Positions 12,272-47,935 of a stretch of DNA of 64,000 nt are shown here, one piece after another (the first letter of the stretch is position 1; every line of letters starts with the position of its first letter). This DNA comes from a virus: positions 48,617-112,616 of IMG/VR virus record IMGVR_UViG_3300018411_000639. One strand, written 5' to 3'. A program made the translations under genes and the position numbers. The notes beneath the pieces are model-generated. The model did no database searches. It had not been told where the DNA came from and was given only the letters and a program-made list of their open reading frames with translations.

Positions 12272-13069
12272 CTATAAGCTTGCGCTTGTAGGTTGAACGC
12301 CTTTCAGCGAGCCACCCATTTCGCGACTGTAAACGCCACGAACTAGCGGAGACAATCGTCTAGCGATGTAAGTCATCTGTCTTTCCATCACTACCGTATC
12401 TACAGACACACCGGAACTTTCGTTCAAGATGTCGATGTCATAGATTTTTTGGAATGCGGTTTGACCGTACTCATTCGCAAAAGTCAGCGTTGCATCGAAC
12501 GGAGGCAATGTATCAGCGTACAAGATGTTTTCTCCACGAATCGGAGAGAACCCAGCCGGAACGTATACGTCCGCAGCGTCTTCATAGCTTTCAACAAAGT
12601 AACCTGTGTCGTCGAAGTTCGGTTTGCCGTTACTTCCGGGTTGAGCGTTCGCCACGATTTGGCTTGTTCCGCTGAATCCGTATCCTGGGTTGTTCAGGTT
12701 AGCAGCAGCACTAGCGTTCACATTCCATTTCAGCATATTTAAAGCATCCGTAAATGCTTCGGATTTTGCTTGCACCGCGTTGCCGGCAGCTGTAAACATT
12801 GCAGCAGGAGCCACTTTGTCCCAGATAGATTGCATAGCAGTGATCAAGGAATCGTGATCGAAGACTGCGAAGACCATAGAGCCAGCAATTCCGCGTTTTC
12901 CGCGAGAAAACGAACGAGCATCAGCAGATCCCAATGTGAATACCGGAGCTTTTTCACGCTGGATCGCATAAGAGATTTGTTGCAATTCACCTACGACTTG
13001 GTTTGCGAAGCTGACAACTAGGTCGGCACCACTGAAAGACGTTAAAGTGTTAATGGTTGGGCTTGCCAT
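12272..13069 (-). CDS. Major tail tube protein
   Basis: Directly downstream of the sheath; SFSGAD..RGKRGIAGSMVF..PPFD..NEYG..TYIAR; followed by a terminator. Confidence 0.8.
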   Translation of the reverse strand: MASPTINTLTSFSGADLVVSFANQVVGELQQISYAIQREKAPVFTLGSADARSFSRGKRGIAGSMVFAVFDHDSLITAMQSIWDKVAPAAMFTAAGNAVQAKSEAFTDALNMLKWNVNASAAANLNNPGYGFSGTSQIVANAQPGSNGKPNFDDTGYFVESYEDAADVYVPAGFSPIRGENILYADTLPPFDATLTFANEYGQTAFQKIYDIDILNESSGVSVDTVVMERQMTYIARRLSPLVRGVYSREMGGSLKGVQPTSASL

Positions 13070-13144: not shown

Positions 13145-15508
13145 TTAAGAAGCTTTTAATCCTACAACAGTTGTGATGCGACGCAATTCTTGAGGAGGAA
13201 CGATCGTTAATTCGATACGAGCCTGACCTAAGACTTGGTCTTGGACGCTTGATGTTACGATGAAGTCGTAATCTAAGATCACGCCTTTTTCTTTCAAGAG
13301 ACCTAATCGTTTGCTGATAGCAGCAGACAATGCGTTCATTTGTTCAGTTGTGTTCGCTTCACCGATGTAAGGCTCGGATACGTCGCGGATTTGGTCAACG
13401 GTTTCACGGATTACTTTCGTTGTCGTCAAGCGCGCGTAGTCGGAACCAGCTGCGGCAGAGGTGATGCCATCTACAACGTAAGCAGCCCCTGCGTTTGCAC
13501 CTTGTTGGTCAAACTTAGTTTTGAACACTACGATTCGGTTGCCCAAGATAGCGTTCATTTGTGGGTTAGACAAGCGGTAACGCAAGCCTCTTACACCCGC
13601 AAGGCGTTTGTTCGCTGGAGCAGAATGAACCGGGATAACAGCGTTCAAGCCAACGTAAGCGACAGCAGGAGATCCGTAAGAACGTCCCAATGCTCTGCTT
13701 TGGTAAACTGGCTCAGGAGAACCGACTACTGTCAGGAAGCTACCCAAGTCGATTGGCTTACCATCGTTGTCGATGATGATGTTACCCACTTCATCGCGCA
13801 TCAGGTACGTGTTTGGCATGTTCGCCAATTTGTTCGCGTGAGCCTGAATGCCTGCCAAAGAAGTGTCTGTTGCAGGACGAACGTCGATTGCGCCCAAGGT
13901 AATCTTGCTGCGGTACGAAAGCACCGTGCAGAACAAACCTAGTTCGTAAGCGAAGTTCTGGTAGCGGCCAGGAAGAACGTCGTCAGCGTAAACGCCTAGA
14001 GGAACAACCCAATCCGTTTGGTAATCTTCTAGCAACTGGTAAGCCCCTTGTACGCTGACAAAGCCTTCACTATCACGGACACCAGATAGCGCCTCGAACA
14101 ATTTAGTCTTGTCTGTCGTAATGCCGTTGTCGCCACCGATGAAGTTTACGCCATCAGCGCCGCCCTCTGCCAAGTTAGAAACCAATTCTGATACCAAAGC
14201 GTCAGGGAAGACTGTTTTCGCGCGGTAGACGCTGTTGCTGTAGTCGCCGTTGATTGCTTCTACTAACTGACCGAAAGTAGGGTAGTCGATTGAAGTGAAC
14301 ACCATTGGTTGCTCAGCGACTTGTTTTCTCTTCGACAACGGTTTGATGATTTTCACAGTTTTACCTGCGACATCTCCGTTCGCGTCCAAGATATCCTCGA
14401 CGATGACCGTACTCTGGTTGTAGACTTCACCTGCGAAGTAAGAGGAGATTTCGATGTTGCGCTCTACCAACTGTACATCTTCGTAGCTGTACGTTACGGC
14501 AACTTGAGACCCTAGTGGGTAGAATTTCTTCTCCAATTTTACGGTTTTCGCTGTAGCGTCTACGATGAAAGCAATCGGGTTTGTCATCTCAACGCCATTC
14601 ACGTAAACATGAACCGATCCGCTAACTGGTGTGTGTGCGATGGTTTTGCTTTGCAAGCTAGTTGCAGCTGTGTAAGGTGTTACGCCGTCGCCTGTTTCAG
14701 TCGCATGGAATACGTCGGTTGTGATACCTGTGTAGTCCACTTTGATTTCGTCGCCCGCTTGTGCTGGGTTTCCGACTGCGTAAGTTGTGATTTTCACTGT
14801 GCGGTCTGTGACTTGGTAGCCGCCTTCAGCAATTTCCAATCCGCCGACAAACACATGGATAGCACCCTTTGGCTTGTAAGCTAACTCTAAGCTAGTTTCT
14901 TCATCCAACAAGTGCGTTTCCTTTACAACTTCGGTAGTACGGTAGTGATCGTATTGCACTTGCAAGGAAGCCCCTGCGTCGCACACATTAGGAGCCAAGA
15001 TGACTTGACCATCCGTTTCGTTTACGGTCACACCACCAGTGATCAATACACCTTTAGCGTAAACTTTAGTAGAAGCCTGTACGATGGTACCGTTTTGCAA
15101 CTGGATAGTAGTCAGGTCGTTACCCTCTGCATAGCCTAATTCTTCCGTTGACGTTTCTACGGTAGTAAGTGTTTCTGGCGTCTTCTTCAAAGACGTTTTT
15201 GCACGTGTACCAGTTACACGCATCAAGCGAATATCTCGTACCCCGTTCTCGTATAACTCTTTTGCAGCCTTAACTAAGGTTGATCCGTTAGGGGCTCCGT
15301 TTGCGTTGATCTCTTTACCGAAGACTGTCTCCAGTGTGTTGATGTCAATCGCGACAGGTTCCATTACGGGACCGTCTACTGCTGTTCCCAGCAATAGCAC
15401 GCTATCTGTCTGAGCTGCAGAGATGTCACTGCGTAGAGCCAACCCACCATCTTTAAATTCAACCAGATGGCCCGGTAAGTTCGGGTATTGGTTCGTCATG
15501 CCAGCCAT
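13145..15508 (-). CDS. Tail sheath protein
   Basis: N-terminal YPNLPG..LLGTAVDGP; C-terminal sheath domain (SDYARLTT..PYIGE..IVPPQELRRI); beta-rich insertion domains. Confidence 0.9.
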   Translation of the reverse strand: MAGMTNQYPNLPGHLVEFKDGGLALRSDISAAQTDSVLLLGTAVDGPVMEPVAIDINTLETVFGKEINANGAPNGSTLVKAAKELYENGVRDIRLMRVTGTRAKTSLKKTPETLTTVETSTEELGYAEGNDLTTIQLQNGTIVQASTKVYAKGVLITGGVTVNETDGQVILAPNVCDAGASLQVQYDHYRTTEVVKETHLLDEETSLELAYKPKGAIHVFVGGLEIAEGGYQVTDRTVKITTYAVGNPAQAGDEIKVDYTGITTDVFHATETGDGVTPYTAATSLQSKTIAHTPVSGSVHVYVNGVEMTNPIAFIVDATAKTVKLEKKFYPLGSQVAVTYSYEDVQLVERNIEISSYFAGEVYNQSTVIVEDILDANGDVAGKTVKIIKPLSKRKQVAEQPMVFTSIDYPTFGQLVEAINGDYSNSVYRAKTVFPDALVSELVSNLAEGGADGVNFIGGDNGITTDKTKLFEALSGVRDSEGFVSVQGAYQLLEDYQTDWVVPLGVYADDVLPGRYQNFAYELGLFCTVLSYRSKITLGAIDVRPATDTSLAGIQAHANKLANMPNTYLMRDEVGNIIIDNDGKPIDLGSFLTVVGSPEPVYQSRALGRSYGSPAVAYVGLNAVIPVHSAPANKRLAGVRGLRYRLSNPQMNAILGNRIVVFKTKFDQQGANAGAAYVVDGITSAAAGSDYARLTTTKVIRETVDQIRDVSEPYIGEANTTEQMNALSAAISKRLGLLKEKGVILDYDFIVTSSVQDQVLGQARIELTIVPPQELRRITTVVGLKAS

Positions 15509-40861: not shown

Positions 40862-41935
40862 CTACGCTTGTTTGATGATTGTCATCGGGAATGACTTGTT
40901 CTGAGAATACTCTGGCCCTGCTGATGCATTCGAGCTTGCTACCAACTGAAGAACTGTCTCTGCGTTGGTCTCGCCAACGGCTGGACGTGTAACTTGCGCT
41001 ACGAAGTGAGTCCCCGCATCCACAACCTTCAGGTTCGGGTTGGTTGGGTCTGCCGCTCCGCCGGCCGTCATAACTGCCCATGCGAGTGACACAGTAGCTG
41101 CCTCTGGTGAGATAGATACTACATTCTTCGGCAAGATCATGTTTTCCACGACTTGATTCAAGGAAACGTTGTCGCCTTTAATCACAGATGCATCAACCAC
41201 AGAGATAGAGCGGACTACAGCTTCTAAGTTTGTGATAGGAAGTTTCATGACCTTGTTTGCCATAAAGTAGACTGTCTTGGTGACGTCTCCTTTTGACACG
41301 AAACCGGTTAGTGACACTGTACGATCTCCCTCAGAGAAGGATGGGCGCACGACTTTACCAGTAGCAGAGATAGCATCGGCTGCTGTACTTGTCCACGCGA
41401 TCAGGGAGCCGTGAGCTCCTTTGGTAGGAAGCGTCAAGTCTGTGTTGATTTCAGTCCGGATCGCGTTTAGTCCTTTGATGGACTCCCACGAGATTGCTGT
41501 AAGGTCCAAGTCAACCTCTTCTTCGTTCGTCCACGCAACGACGCTCAGCGGGATAACTTTTGTTTCAGTGATGATGCCCTTTTTGATAGTTGCTGTCATC
41601 GTTACTGCGGTAGCTGCCGATCCATTTGCCGGACGTACCACTGTACCGATGTTGTCAACCGTAAGAGGGGCGCTCGATACCCATGTAATGACTGACCCAT
41701 TTGGTCCGACCGATTGCAAGAATAGATTGCGGCGTACCGCTTCTTTTCCTGCAATATCTAGCCAAGTTTTGTCTGCCATGACGACCTGTGTGTCTGTCAT
41801 ACCGGCTTGCTTTACGCTAGCTGGGTATGTTTTGCTTTTTGTTACTGTACCTTTGGTTACAGTAGCGGTGAGGGATAAAACCCCGTCACCGTTACCATAA
41901 GCAGGTCTTGTCACTTTGCCTTTAACCATCGTCAC
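40862..41935 (-). CDS. Ig-like repeat protein (atrophied bacterial Ig type), starting with a half domain
   Basis: Three repeats of L.LP..G..GS.I.W.S..G.V.RP....V.LT; GTG start after GGAGG. Confidence 0.75.
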   Translation of the reverse strand: MTMVKGKVTRPAYGNGDGVLSLTATVTKGTVTKSKTYPASVKQAGMTDTQVVMADKTWLDIAGKEAVRRNLFLQSVGPNGSVITWVSSAPLTVDNIGTVVRPANGSAATAVTMTATIKKGIITETKVIPLSVVAWTNEEEVDLDLTAISWESIKGLNAIRTEINTDLTLPTKGAHGSLIAWTSTAADAISATGKVVRPSFSEGDRTVSLTGFVSKGDVTKTVYFMANKVMKLPITNLEAVVRSISVVDASVIKGDNVSLNQVVENMILPKNVVSISPEAATVSLAWAVMTAGGAADPTNPNLKVVDAGTHFVAQVTRPAVGETNAETVLQLVASSNASAGPEYSQNKSFPMTIIKQA

Positions 41936-41952
41936 AAACCTCCGTTAGTGTT

Positions 41953-44490
41953 TTAAATTTCTGTAATCAGGATCAATTCTTCGCTTGAAGATGTCCAGTT
42001 AACAGCTAAGTTATTTGTCGAAGTAGCTGGAAGAACAACGTCTGTTGTTAAACTATGCAAACTACCCACCAGGATATCCAGTCCGTCTATCGCCTCATTG
42101 ACAGCTTCTTCATCCGTGATTGCTTTCGGTCTACGAACAGCCTTCTTGACAGCAAAGCCATACGTCGCATTAGGAGAGCCTGCAAACGGAGAGAAAGGAG
42201 CTGTGATCGGGAAGAAGATGTAAGTTTCCTCTTCTTTTGTCGCATCTTTCTTGAAGTCACGGTTTACGATCAATTCGTCAAACGCGTACAAGGAAGATGT
42301 GTCGATTGCCAAGCAATCTGCCAAGACTCCACGAGGGCCGTCATTTCCGTGAGTAATCTTCAGTTTATCTGCGTAGTACTCGCCAGTGTAAGCTGACTTA
42401 CCGTACTGCTCTTTGGACATGTACTCTTCCGTGCTTGTGAACATCAGGTGATGCTTCTGGAAGTACGCCTTAGAACGCGTATGCAGCATAGAGATGTCAA
42501 CCACGCCAGTCGCAGTGTTCTTGCCGTAGGTGTCCGGTAGGACGATGTCGATTACGTTACCAAATCCATCGCGCGTGATACCTTTTACGGTTTCATACTT
42601 TTCAGTATAGTAATCGTAATTTAGTGTCAGTTGGACCGTTTCAGAAGGAGCGGAGAACAGAGTTACATCTGCCGTCTTTCTGTCAGCAGAGATGGAAACG
42701 ATACAACTTGTCCCATTTGGTAATTCGCTGACAACACCTGTCTGTAAGTCTTCGTGTGTGACGCTGAACGCTCCTAGCGGATCAAACAACTTGCCGCCCT
42801 CCTGGATGACATAAGAGAATTGTGTGGTCTCCCCTGTCCCCATTGCCATCGGCACACTGTCGCTCATCGTGATGCGCTTCTTCTCGGTGGAGGCTGCGCA
42901 CGGCGTTGTAGAGGACGAAGTGAACAACGCAAAGTTGCCGGCAGTGTCGTTGATCGAGTTTTCAAACGATTCGATCTGCCCTAAGTAAGCCGCTGAAATC
43001 AGGTGGCGGTTTCTTCCGAAGTCCAATGAGGGGTTCCCCATGACAACTAACGCCATGCGGTCGTTGTTCGTGTTGATCCAGAAGCGGATACGCGTATCCC
43101 CGTTCAAGCCCGGAGTTTCTACCGGCAGCCACAGCATGCCATCCGTTAGATCGCTTTCGCCGACATCTCCATCCAGTTCGTCAATGCGAACTTCTTCAAA
43201 ATCTTGATACCAGGACAGCTTCGACCATTCTGATATATGGGATTTGAGTTGAAGGATATCGCCCGTGTTTTCGTCGATGACGTTTGGCATAGGTCCGTTG
43301 CCGTCCGAGTTGATCGCATCATACATGCGTGCGTAGATATAATGATTATTGTAAAGCAGTTTCTTGGCTGCAATTACACTTTGCTCTTTTTCGTACGTGT
43401 AAGTTAACACAGGCTGACCAATGGACGCCACTGATCCTGATACGGTTTTCAGTATTTTCAACGTAAAAGTAGAGCGATCATAAGACCACGAGTCGCCAGA
43501 CAGAGGTGTTGATGATCCGCTGTTGTTCAATGACAAGGTTACGGACTCCGCATTGACTTTATCCAGTTCAGGGAGTTGATATTCGAACCCGACATCTATG
43601 ATATAGGATTCATTTATCGCTTTAAGTGTGACGTCAATGCAGAGCGTACTATTTCTGCTAACGTACATGAATACGGTCATGCTGTCCTGCAATAGAACAG
43701 CTTCCTCTGACATGGCCAACTCTTCTGCTGCCATCTTCAGAAACAAAGACCCTTTTAGTTTGAGCATGCTCTCTTTTGACGTAATCCTCTCTGTGATATT
43801 CCAGAGTCCTGTCGGAGTGATGGCAGGGTAAGAAATACCGAGAGCTGTTGCCAGAGAGTTAGTTAGAGATTTGTACGCAGTGTAATCCGACCTATAGAAC
43901 TCCTTGGTCATCACCTTTGTTGTTACAGGGTACTGTGTCGTGTTTTTCGGATGAGATATCGTACGAAGGCTGATTTCTTTTTCCGCCGTGCGATTGGCGA
44001 ACTCTTGGTAAATCCCTCGAGTGATAACGTAAGGCATGATACCTTTTCTCTCGCTCTCAGGATGGTACTGCTCAGGGTCAGCCAAATATTTTGGCTTATA
44101 CAGTTCCACATACATCTCAACAGACTCTTTGTTTAAGTCGTTTTCGATGCCGATATCATCTACTTGGAAGACGCCACTTAGATCTTTGGTTGAGGTCGTT
44201 GTCTTCAGAATGATAGTATTTCCCGATTGAGAAAGTTGGTTCTCGATCTTCGTAGCAAATTCTGCCGGAGTAAGAGCTGACCAGTCCATTACATTCAGAA
44301 GCTCACGCTGAGGTTTTGGATATACGATATCCCAGTTCTTGTCAATGATGATTTCACGGTCACGAATGACCTGCCCATTCGTATCTAGGACCGCTTCCGT
44401 CTTAACCGCAGTAGATAGGACTTTTGCAAGGTCTTTGATAAAGGTGTTGGCCGAAGATGTACCTTCGTAATAGCGCCAAGCGTTACTCAT
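41953..44490 (-). CDS. Major fibre/appendage structural protein ending in a half Ig domain
   Basis: 845 aa; SAYTGEYY..HGNDGPRG; C-terminal TDEEAV..LP..VNWTSS. Confidence 0.6.
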   Translation of the reverse strand: MSNAWRYYEGTSSANTFIKDLAKVLSTAVKTEAVLDTNGQVIRDREIIIDKNWDIVYPKPQRELLNVMDWSALTPAEFATKIENQLSQSGNTIILKTTTSTKDLSGVFQVDDIGIENDLNKESVEMYVELYKPKYLADPEQYHPESERKGIMPYVITRGIYQEFANRTAEKEISLRTISHPKNTTQYPVTTKVMTKEFYRSDYTAYKSLTNSLATALGISYPAITPTGLWNITERITSKESMLKLKGSLFLKMAAEELAMSEEAVLLQDSMTVFMYVSRNSTLCIDVTLKAINESYIIDVGFEYQLPELDKVNAESVTLSLNNSGSSTPLSGDSWSYDRSTFTLKILKTVSGSVASIGQPVLTYTYEKEQSVIAAKKLLYNNHYIYARMYDAINSDGNGPMPNVIDENTGDILQLKSHISEWSKLSWYQDFEEVRIDELDGDVGESDLTDGMLWLPVETPGLNGDTRIRFWINTNNDRMALVVMGNPSLDFGRNRHLISAAYLGQIESFENSINDTAGNFALFTSSSTTPCAASTEKKRITMSDSVPMAMGTGETTQFSYVIQEGGKLFDPLGAFSVTHEDLQTGVVSELPNGTSCIVSISADRKTADVTLFSAPSETVQLTLNYDYYTEKYETVKGITRDGFGNVIDIVLPDTYGKNTATGVVDISMLHTRSKAYFQKHHLMFTSTEEYMSKEQYGKSAYTGEYYADKLKITHGNDGPRGVLADCLAIDTSSLYAFDELIVNRDFKKDATKEEETYIFFPITAPFSPFAGSPNATYGFAVKKAVRRPKAITDEEAVNEAIDGLDILVGSLHSLTTDVVLPATSTNNLAVNWTSSSEELILITEI

Positions 44491-45235: not shown

Positions 45236-46240
45236 CTAGACACCTCTCTCAACTGGAGAGAATACAAGGTAGCTGACATCACGTGCTTCGTCGTAGATAA
45301 GAGTCCACTCGCCCGCTACAGGTCCTTGTGGTTCGTCCTCGTCTTCTTCGTCAAAGGGACTCCCATATAGGTAGGAGTTCTCGAAGTCAACGTCCGAAGT
45401 CCCTATCCTTCCTACCATCTTGATATAGACGACATTCGTCTTCAAGCTGACACCAAAGCTTTTGTCATCCGGGAACATTTCCAAAACCTCAATCGGAGCC
45501 ACGAAGCTCGCATCCAGATCGCCTAAAAATAGGTCCTCATAGGCGTCTTCTCGGCTGACGACCTCTTGGACTTCCCTCTTGATAAAGAACTGAATAGGGT
45601 CGCTCCAGTGACCATTCACGGCCTTCACCCTTGCGTAGTACAATCCTTCTGTCAGGTTCAACGAGGGGAGGTATTCACTTTTCGCGTATTCACCTACGTT
45701 GTTGATCAGAAGTTCGTCACACAAGAGCGTCTCGAAAGTTTCCTCTCGCGACAACTGGAAGGTGTATGCCTTCGTTTGCTCGTCACCCCACGTGAAGACA
45801 GGAATCTCTGACGAGATCGTGCCGAAGCGAGGTGAGAGGAATGTCGGCTTAGCCCCTGTTGCGCTGCTCTCCGTATAGAAGATGCCCACAAAATCAGTTG
45901 CCAACCCTCTCCCAAGAACATCCGTTAGCCCTCCTGCCCGAATGAACACAAGGTATCGCCTATTCTCCGCTAAAGGATTCGTAGGACTGAAGATGATTGT
46001 CCGATCATCATACGAGGCTTTCCCTTGTACCGTTTCGTACTGAGAACGGTCCATCGAAGCGAGGTTCACAAAATGCAAACCCGGATCGGAGAGGACAACA
46101 AGATTGCCAATGATGGAACCTGTGTCTAGGTCAGAGTTAAAGCGGATGCGAATGTCCTCATGTACATCCACGCCAATCGACTGCATTGCCGGGGTCATTG
46201 ACTCCACCCGAAGGCCCATCGTTTCGACAGAACTCTTCAT
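45236..46240 (-). CDS. Ig-like (Big_5-type) + Fn3-like domain virion protein
   Basis: IRIRFNSDLD..IIFSP..L....Y.V.I..GLTD..G; YTFQLS..F..YYARVKA. Confidence 0.65.
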   Translation of the reverse strand: MKSSVETMGLRVESMTPAMQSIGVDVHEDIRIRFNSDLDTGSIIGNLVVLSDPGLHFVNLASMDRSQYETVQGKASYDDRTIIFSPTNPLAENRRYLVFIRAGGLTDVLGRGLATDFVGIFYTESSATGAKPTFLSPRFGTISSEIPVFTWGDEQTKAYTFQLSREETFETLLCDELLINNVGEYAKSEYLPSLNLTEGLYYARVKAVNGHWSDPIQFFIKREVQEVVSREDAYEDLFLGDLDASFVAPIEVLEMFPDDKSFGVSLKTNVVYIKMVGRIGTSDVDFENSYLYGSPFDEEDEDEPQGPVAGEWTLIYDEARDVSYLVFSPVERGV

Positions 46241-46753: not shown

Positions 46754-47935
46754 TTATTGTGTGATGTTGATAGAACGTTCTGCTTGAGGGTAACCTTTCG
46801 CCATGGAAATGTTTCTACCTACACAGATTGCGCGTCCTTCGTTGTAAGTACCGAAGCCGTAACGTTCGATGACTTTCAGGTTACGCAAGTCGCGTGATGG
46901 GTCACGGAACTCTTCAGTTGTCAGGTCATCTTTCACGATGTTTACGCCGACGTTGTTTGCATCTACAGAGAAGATGTCGAATGTTTTGTTCACTTTGTCG
47001 ATTGGTGCGAATGGTGACAAGTTAACGTTGAATCCGAATGGAATACGTCCTTGGATGCTTTCTGGTCCCAATTTGAATTGAGCATTCGGCATGTCGCGTT
47101 TTGCTTCGCGATCGAAAGGAGCGCTTAAAGCACCAGTTAGGCCATTCTTGGCGAATGTCGTCCAAGCAAGTGGATGCATTACCAAATCTGTGGGAGTGTA
47201 CTCGTTGTTGTAGACTGCGATCAGCAAGTCCAACAAGTCGTCGATTGACATTGTGTCATTCAAGTTATTGTAGAAATCGACACCAGTCGTTCCTGCATCC
47301 TTGAAGCGGATTGGGTCTTGTTTGCGCAAGTTGTTATCGAAGACAACCCATCCATGAGTCAAGAACTCGTTGAAGGCTTTTTGTTCTTTGTGGCGAGCCA
47401 TAGCGCGGCCTGCCTCAGAAGTCATGATGCCTACAAGGTCAAACTCAACTTCTTTCAATAACTCGTCAGAGAATTGAATACGAACCCCTGATTTACCAAC
47501 TTGGATCAAGGAGTTCTTGTGTGTTTGCCAGTCTAAGGATTCCTGTGGAATTTCTTGACCTTCAGCCACATCGTGTGCACGCATTACGCCGATAGATGGG
47601 AACATAACCGCTTGGCCTGACTTCAAGCGTAATTTTTTGTAGAAGTTAGAAGCTAAGTACAACGGATCAGCTGCTTTACGCATTGCGCCTACGACTACGC
47701 GAGGGATCAATACTTTAGCTTGAGGAGTTGACAAGAAATCTTGAAGAGTGAAGCCCGGTACGTTTTCGCCGTCTACGACACGTTGGAAGACATTCATTAC
47801 CTCTTTGTCTTTGTCTGTAAGTTTATACAGTTTTACTTCTGAATCGCTCAACATGTCACCGCGATCTAATTTACCTGCGATGGAGTCTTGGATTTTTGTT
47901 TCTTGCTCTTGAATTTTGTCCAAAATCGTTAACAT
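46754..47935 (-). CDS. Major capsid protein (HK97 fold)
   Basis: 393 aa; VAEGQEIP..KSGVRIQFSDE..PTDLVMHP..ERYG; canonical position. Confidence 0.9.
   Translation of the reverse strand: MLTILDKIQEQETKIQDSIAGKLDRGDMLSDSEVKLYKLTDKDKEVMNVFQRVVDGENVPGFTLQDFLSTPQAKVLIPRVVVGAMRKAADPLYLASNFYKKLRLKSGQAVMFPSIGVMRAHDVAEGQEIPQESLDWQTHKNSLIQVGKSGVRIQFSDELLKEVEFDLVGIMTSEAGRAMARHKEQKAFNEFLTHGWVVFDNNLRKQDPIRFKDAGTTGVDFYNNLNDTMSIDDLLDLLIAVYNNEYTPTDLVMHPLAWTTFAKNGLTGALSAPFDREAKRDMPNAQFKLGPESIQGRIPFGFNVNLSPFAPIDKVNKTFDIFSVDANNVGVNIVKDDLTTEEFRDPSRDLRNLKVIERYGFGTYNEGRAICVGRNISMAKGYPQAERSINITQ

Follow-up and report, generated by a model that had tools for sequence, protein, structure and literature searches.

One aBig_2 Ig-like domain divided between a gp129-like virion protein gene and its neighbour in a phage related to Bacillus phage 0305phi8-36

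In the chaperone-usher pili (Fim, Pap), subunits are connected by donor-strand complementation and exchange, and the type V pili are likewise built by strand exchange. Split inteins of natural origin rebuild one small fold from separately made polypeptides, as do engineered split Ig-like domains, SpyTag/SpyCatcher among them. Gene fissions usually fall between domains, and our search of the literature turned up no report of phage proteins joined by a split Ig-like domain. The Ig-like domain concerned here, aBig_2 (PF20578), has been solved intact in the arabinanase AbnA of Geobacillus stearothermophilus (PDB 5HO0/5HO9, residues 550-640), where it is a continuous chain in a secreted enzyme, whereas at the phage locus described in this work one copy of it is divided between two genes, designated A and B. 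The AbnA domain resembles the first complete repeat of B in sequence (E 1e-20) as well as in structure (96 columns, rmsd 2.8 Å, 38% identity).

A described phage protein homologous to A is gp129 of Bacillus phage 0305phi8-36, a major virion protein by mass spectrometry that is annotated as a candidate curly-fibre protein (PMC2147016). The gp129 family has been put forward, at the level of a proposal, as the builder of curly or helical tail fibres (PMC2147016, PMC4870245), the assignment of gp129 to the fibre being a candidate one from mass spectrometry and copy number (PMC4870245).

The window, by which we mean the whole stretch of 64,000 nucleotides analysed, is part of a 112.6-kb IMG/VR virus record (IMGVR_UViG_3300018411_000639) that is about half complete. 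The phage is a myovirus related to 0305phi8-36, a lineage whose host is probably a member of the Firmicutes. The window and 0305phi8-36 (orfs 125-132) have a gene order in common, namely capsid, gp126-128, gp129, gp130, gp131 and gp132, with the major capsid gene of the window at 46754..47935, and all the genes under discussion lie on the minus strand. The product of gene A is matched by ORF129 of 0305phi8-36 in tblastn, with 42% identity over a conserved core (residues 381-784), and the gp129 family is also its best fold match in BFVD. Its relatives comprise gp129 itself and virion proteins of BpSp, AR9, PBS1 and two Clostridium tetani phages, and the conserved core and the gene order are common to the A locus and the gp129, BpSp, AR9 and PBS1 homologues. 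A and B match consecutive parts of the 1106-position profile of PHROG 35367 (A at E 4e-144, B at E 3e-25; Table 1). By profile and synteny, A is thus a member of the gp129-like virion protein family, and it is only through homology to gp129, itself a candidate curly-fibre protein, that A may be placed on curly or helical tail fibres. Unlike A, gp129 of 0305phi8-36 ends right after the core, without an Ig half and without a B gene, as does a homologue at a further locus (L002). A Pfam search with A gave no match, and the comparison of its model with PDB folds returned only meaningless low-TM matches. A was also considered as a tail sheath protein, which was rejected because A matches no sheath family and the sheath is encoded by a separate gene (13145..15508; phrog_16991, E 2e-208).

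The first-pass annotation of this DNA had suggested that an Ig domain is split across the boundary between the two genes, and the profile searches bear this out. In B, the Pfam aBig_2 model finds three stretches with 161.7 bits against a cut-off of 27, and repeat 1 spans its positions 1-88; where three full repeats had been counted behind the half-domain at the B start, two are canonical and the third is divergent and larger. A repeat HMM of 91 positions, which we built from the complete repeat (B residues 43-133) in 20 orthologues, aligns A residues 791-840 with model positions 2-49 and B residues 3-40 with positions 52-89. When PF20578 was run on the DNA, the A frame matched positions 17-47 (19 bits, E 1e-4, below the cut-off by itself) and the B frame positions 49-88 (38.7 bits, E 7e-11, above it). 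On these alignments, one aBig_2 domain is divided between A and B without overlap or gap, and the complementary half-matches are well beyond chance. The A product ends with VNWTSS and, a little further on, LILITEI, followed by TAA. As read from the secondary structure of the complete repeats, the cut falls in the turn between the strand that follows W-x-S and the G-x-V-x-R-P strand, so placed that the helix and two or three strands fall to A, and a single strand plus a hairpin to B.

Table 1. Coordinates of the two genes, the spacer between them and the repeats they encode, in window numbering.
Feature	Coordinates	Strand	Description
Gene A	41953..44490	(-)	845 aa; gp129-like predicted major virion structural protein; phrog_35367, profile positions up to 735
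A tail, residues 787-845	41956..42132	(-)	First aBig_2 half: helix 793-803, LP motif, W-x-S strand, last strand LILI
Spacer A-B	41930..41952	(-)	23 nt; GGAGG at 41939..41943
Gene B	40862..41929	(-)	355 aa; aBig_2 repeat protein; phrog_35367, profile positions 746-1095
B head, residues 1-42	41804..41929	(-)	Second aBig_2 half: G-K-V-T-R-P strand and beta-hairpin 16-39
B repeat 1, residues 43-133	41531..41803	(-)	Complete aBig_2 domain
B repeat 2, residues 134-228	41246..41530	(-)	Complete aBig_2 domain
B repeat 3, residues 229-355	40865..41245	(-)	Divergent, larger aBig_2-like domain

As the first-pass annotation had stated, the two genes lie in different frames, stops occur in both frames, and a GGAGG precedes the second gene. 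The gap of 17 bp given at first counts to a GTG at 41935, whereas the likely start of B is the ATG at 41929, 9 nt after the GGAGG, which leaves a gap of 23 nt and gives a protein beginning MVKGKVTRP; the relatives of B start at the methionine equivalent to this ATG. The A frame is closed a second time by a TGA that overlaps the likely B start (41931..41933), and a TAA lying 18 nt ahead of the ATG, past the stop of A itself, closes the B frame.

A search with the C-terminal 346 residues of A gave 256 relatives, and in all 21 clusters of A relatives of 832-925 aa (43-90% identical) the protein ends with the same first half of the domain (model positions 2-50), stopping 2-14 residues past the model match. 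The search with B gave about 20 orthologues of 351-410 aa (29-58% identity), the heads of which match positions 51-89, and a later search added six more, for about 26 in total; all the B orthologues begin within 2-6 residues of the G-x-V-x-R-P motif. Two of the split loci could be compared with the window as DNA, one on a 199.8-kb viral contig (L001, 45% identity) and the other at 54% identity (L003). The spacers of the three loci measure 23, 15 and 45 nt for the window, L001 and L003, are unrelated in sequence and set the two genes in different frame relations, and all three loci have a GGAGG before the ATG of B. Three further searches, a DNA search of the phage collection, a tblastn search of the same collection with B and a scan of genome contigs, gave no match to the locus, no match to B and no relative, respectively.

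Since the cut is conserved while the spacers and the frames vary, the boundary is neither an error, nor a decaying gene, nor a recoding site, in agreement with the original reading, which had argued against sequencing error, frameshift and readthrough. An artefact of sequencing or assembly, or recent damage to a truly fused gene by a nonsense or frameshift mutation, could be suggested by the existence of fused relatives, described below; this is nevertheless improbable in the extreme, as independent assemblies show the same cut in 21 clusters of A and about 26 of B, and it is found again at two other loci with unrelated spacer sequences.

Recoding, by which a programmed frameshift or the read-through of a stop codon would make an A-B fusion protein, is reportedly known for the Ig-like extensions of some phage tail proteins (Fraser et al. 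2006), and it could be suggested by L001, where the genes are in frame, with one TAA and five sense codons between them and a spacer of 15 nt. In the window, however, the frames differ and a TAA closes the B frame after the stop of A, so that no single frameshift yields a fusion there, and the 45-nt spacer of L003 carries three in-frame TAA stops. Neither the frame relation nor the spacer is conserved, and B has its own GGAGG and ATG at each of the three loci. The programmed frameshift or read-through extension is therefore rejected on the sequence, with the B frame closed and the gaps of 23, 15 and 45 nt in varied frames, and we hold recoding to be very improbable.

In six relatives of 1221-1281 aa, A and B form a single chain; the domain (model positions 4-89) is intact exactly where the split forms are cut, and the same further repeats follow it. 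B residues 2-354, for example, align with residues 868-1218 of one of them (P0023; 40% identity, E 7e-76). The first-pass annotation had named relatives with a single fused ORF as evidence that would speak against the split. Such relatives do exist, but the split form is kept in many more lineages, so that the fusions argue for an interaction rather than for an error, and, on these alignments, they are evidence that the products of A and B belong together and not a refutation of the split.

A tree was built from the conserved core (A residues 380-785), with the columns of the trait itself excluded. It has two sister groups. The first is a clade with good support, comprising 26 proteins that bear aBig_2, of which 20 are split and 6 fused, the fused ones falling in two groups; the second consists of 46 fused proteins whose C-terminal module is a different one. 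Within the aBig_2 clade the split and fused forms are interleaved and the internal order is poorly resolved, and the tree would allow either one fission with later re-fusions or several fissions. In P0026 and P0030, the long loops are as long as would be predicted if an in-frame spacer like that of L001 were read through. The fused form is likely the ancestral state, because most members of the family are fused.

Both halves of the domain are under constraint. The B head is the most conserved segment of B, with a mean pairwise identity of 0.53 versus 0.45, 0.41 and 0.33 for repeats 1-3, and the A tail, at 0.42-0.46, is similar to the whole of A (0.48) and has twice the identity of the variable regions of A (0.21-0.27). 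By these measures, each half is at least as well conserved as the rest of its protein. The invariant residues are P788, L820, P821, W832 and S834 in A, and R8, P9, L20, T21, A22 and G27 in B, and they are the hallmarks of the fold (LP, W-x-S, RP, LTA and G). A and B also co-diverge (Spearman 0.61 over 28 non-independent comparisons of eight pairs, five of which were paired only by the equal length of their contigs). That B, a putative adhesin, would be exchangeable is not supported, as B has one architecture throughout and co-diverges with A, and the Pfam model run on the DNA found no other aBig_2 gene in the 112.6-kb record.

The most serious alternative is that the fission is merely tolerated and that the two halves do not rebuild one domain, with the B hairpin packing on its own next repeat, the A tail being a flexible remnant, and B attaching elsewhere in the virion or not at all. 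Folded alone, B was predicted with high confidence (mean pLDDT 93) as a string of domains, each made of a helix, a short strand and a hairpin, and residues 16-39 at its N-terminus formed their hairpin at pLDDT 86-91 without A, in keeping with this alternative; on this model, the B hairpin may not strictly need A. In favour of co-folding, A alone was predicted at a mean pLDDT of 71, its tail (residues 787-845) reaching 43-52 and forming only the helix 793-803. A functionless remnant should decay, whereas both halves keep the fold-defining residues down to 29-45% identity; moreover, the head is better conserved than any other part of B, the position of the cut stays fixed, and the split and fused forms interleave in one clade.

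The complex was predicted from A 770-845 and B 1-135, with alignments of our own, together with three controls. The pair scored 0.82 versus 0.00 for the best control, a score that may owe something to the solved intact domain 5HO0, and the mark applied was reached by 58 of 80 solved complexes and by 2 of 110 mismatched pairs. Between runs, at least 99% of contacts agree, with a partner pLDDT of at least 94. The predicted interface involves only A 792-845 and B 1-40, with the W-x-S strand (A 830-835) against B 18-24 and A 839-841 against B 5-7, and the complete repeat B 43-133, present in the same construct, is not used. Because the intact domain has been solved (5HO0), the predictor may have reproduced the known fold, and the pass may then report the likeness of the two halves to one domain and not their binding, a point that again leans toward the alternative without rebuilding. 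Weighing the constraint, the fixed cut and the interleaved tree against these model results, we judge that alternative to be unlikely.

The reading that we favour is that the two halves fold together into one domain and so clip B onto A, which we judge to be probable. The first-pass annotation had proposed strand-complementation docking of B onto the fibre subunit. The docking itself is supported by the cut conserved in more than 20 diverged lineages, the fused relatives, the constraint and the controlled complex prediction, but what is supplied is half a domain and not one strand.

We propose that the locus reflects an old and conserved gene fission inside the first aBig_2 domain of a gp129-like protein. 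Within one clade, an exposed hairpin turn of the first Ig-like domain would have acquired a stop, a ribosome-binding site and a start, so that A would retain the helix, the strands that carry LP and W-x-S, and one more strand, and B, translated from its own ribosome-binding site, would bring the G-x-V-x-R-P strand and the next hairpin. Neither half would form the fold alone; after translation the two would bind in trans and co-fold into one domain, presumably at a 1:1 stoichiometry, and B with its three more Ig-like domains would be held non-covalently as an arm at the C-terminus of each A subunit, possibly on the curly or helical tail fibre. The resulting architecture would be that of the fused relatives in one chain. 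The split could be kept for separate dosage, for the order of assembly or through neutrality. Phage Ig-like domains are often assumed to bind weakly to cell-surface sugars, and B might bind carbohydrate or the cell surface.

The proposed joint can be set against the known ones. Like the pili, A and B are predicted to complete an incomplete Ig-like fold with a segment of another polypeptide and to be joined non-covalently. The pili, however, donate one strand, while B would supply about 40 of 90 residues (a strand and a hairpin, three strands), and, unlike in the pili, the joint would be a one-off between two different proteins, it would drive no polymerisation, and fused relatives exist. No chaperone or usher genes were seen in the virion context of this phage. 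Membership of A/B in the chaperone-usher donor-strand systems is accordingly rejected, as three strands are supplied and chaperone and usher genes are lacking. As with split inteins and SpyTag/SpyCatcher, two polypeptides are predicted to associate by rebuilding a small fold, but, unlike split inteins, A and B show no Hint fold and no splicing residues, and nothing suggests intein-type splicing. The aBig_2 domain is not known to have any isopeptide chemistry, and the A/B joint is presumably non-covalent, unlike that of SpyTag/SpyCatcher.

A cut in the middle of the fold of a 90-residue domain, kept in more than 20 diverged phages, would imply that the halves find each other and co-fold, that is, a natural two-piece protein joint, and it would account for the attachment of accessory Ig-like decorations to a major virion protein in the large phages related to 0305phi8-36. 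On a wider scale, half-domain complementation of small Ig-like folds may be a general and hitherto undescribed way in which tailed phages clip on separately made appendage proteins, with the aBig_2 pair (about 55 and 40 residues) as a self-sufficient and specific non-covalent joint that has long replaced a peptide bond; we regard the chances for and against this generalisation as evenly balanced. If it holds, the joint could be transferred to other proteins and serve there as a natural docking tag. The same split as a docking system across other protein families was looked for with B residues 1-43 among 1.84 billion representatives, and was set aside when no second family with an N-terminal half-domain appeared; N-terminal half-domains were found only in the B orthologues (about 350-380 aa) and in a few truncated-looking ORFs. 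The fused and split relatives offer a ready-made natural experiment. The pair might be of use as a small orthogonal docking pair for protein engineering, and its recognition might help genes in phage structural modules to be called and annotated better, without such pairs being mistaken for pseudogenes. Among solved structures, the B model is matched best by the AbnA arabinanase domain and by S-layer or cadherin-like strings of beads.

In the fused relatives, in which genes A and B form one reading frame with an intact aBig_2 domain (P0026, P0030 and P0023-25), the loop at the cut point, namely the hairpin turn at which the domain is divided in the split forms, exceeds that of ordinary repeats by 6-14 residues. 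In both P0026 and P0030 the W and the R/Q-P motif lie 30 residues apart, exactly the spacing expected for read-through of an in-frame spacer of the type found at L001, another viral locus with split A and B genes. Judged from these sequences, the longer loop of the fused relatives may be a scar of re-fusion.

Another group of fused relatives (P0031-P0121; 1110-1390 aa) carries past the conserved core a helix, a P motif and a C-x-V-Y-W-K-V strand, which together resemble the first half of aBig_2 and give partial HMM matches at positions 10-48, and the C-terminal module that follows is a different one. The first half of aBig_2 may be an old part of the A family, onto which various ends have been grafted. 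Among the split-form relatives, P0008, P0012 and P0022 bear after the half-domain a short and strongly basic tail, with the endings ..ARKR, ..KKGRK and ..LRARK.

Because P0007, a split-form A homologue with 60% identity, belongs to the annotated proteins of a Clostridium felsineum genome (330.6-kb contig), hosts among the Clostridia are suggested, and this genome is possibly a culturable source.

Elsewhere in the window (see table), the 334-aa Big_5 protein occupies the position of gp127 of 0305phi8-36. The 265-aa gene shares an N-terminal module with the three consecutive genes encoding the 560-, 287- and 171-aa proteins, of which the 287-aa protein matches the first half alone of phrog_33096; the match of the 171-aa protein, to a different PHROG, is limited to the final 70 positions of that profile. 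This cluster is a plausible candidate for the other split fold in the window that the first-pass annotation had mentioned.

Further genes of the window and their domain or family matches
Feature	Window position	Strand	Match or location
Three consecutive genes, 560, 287 and 171 aa	9116..12231	-	PG_binding_1 and SH3 domains
265-aa gene	12272..13069		
Tail sheath, 787 aa	13145..15508	-	phrog_16991, E 2e-208
Second sheath-like gene, 521 aa	16311..17876	-	sheath PHROGs, E 3e-15
334-aa protein	45236..46240	-	Big_5 Ig-like domain; between capsid gene and gene A
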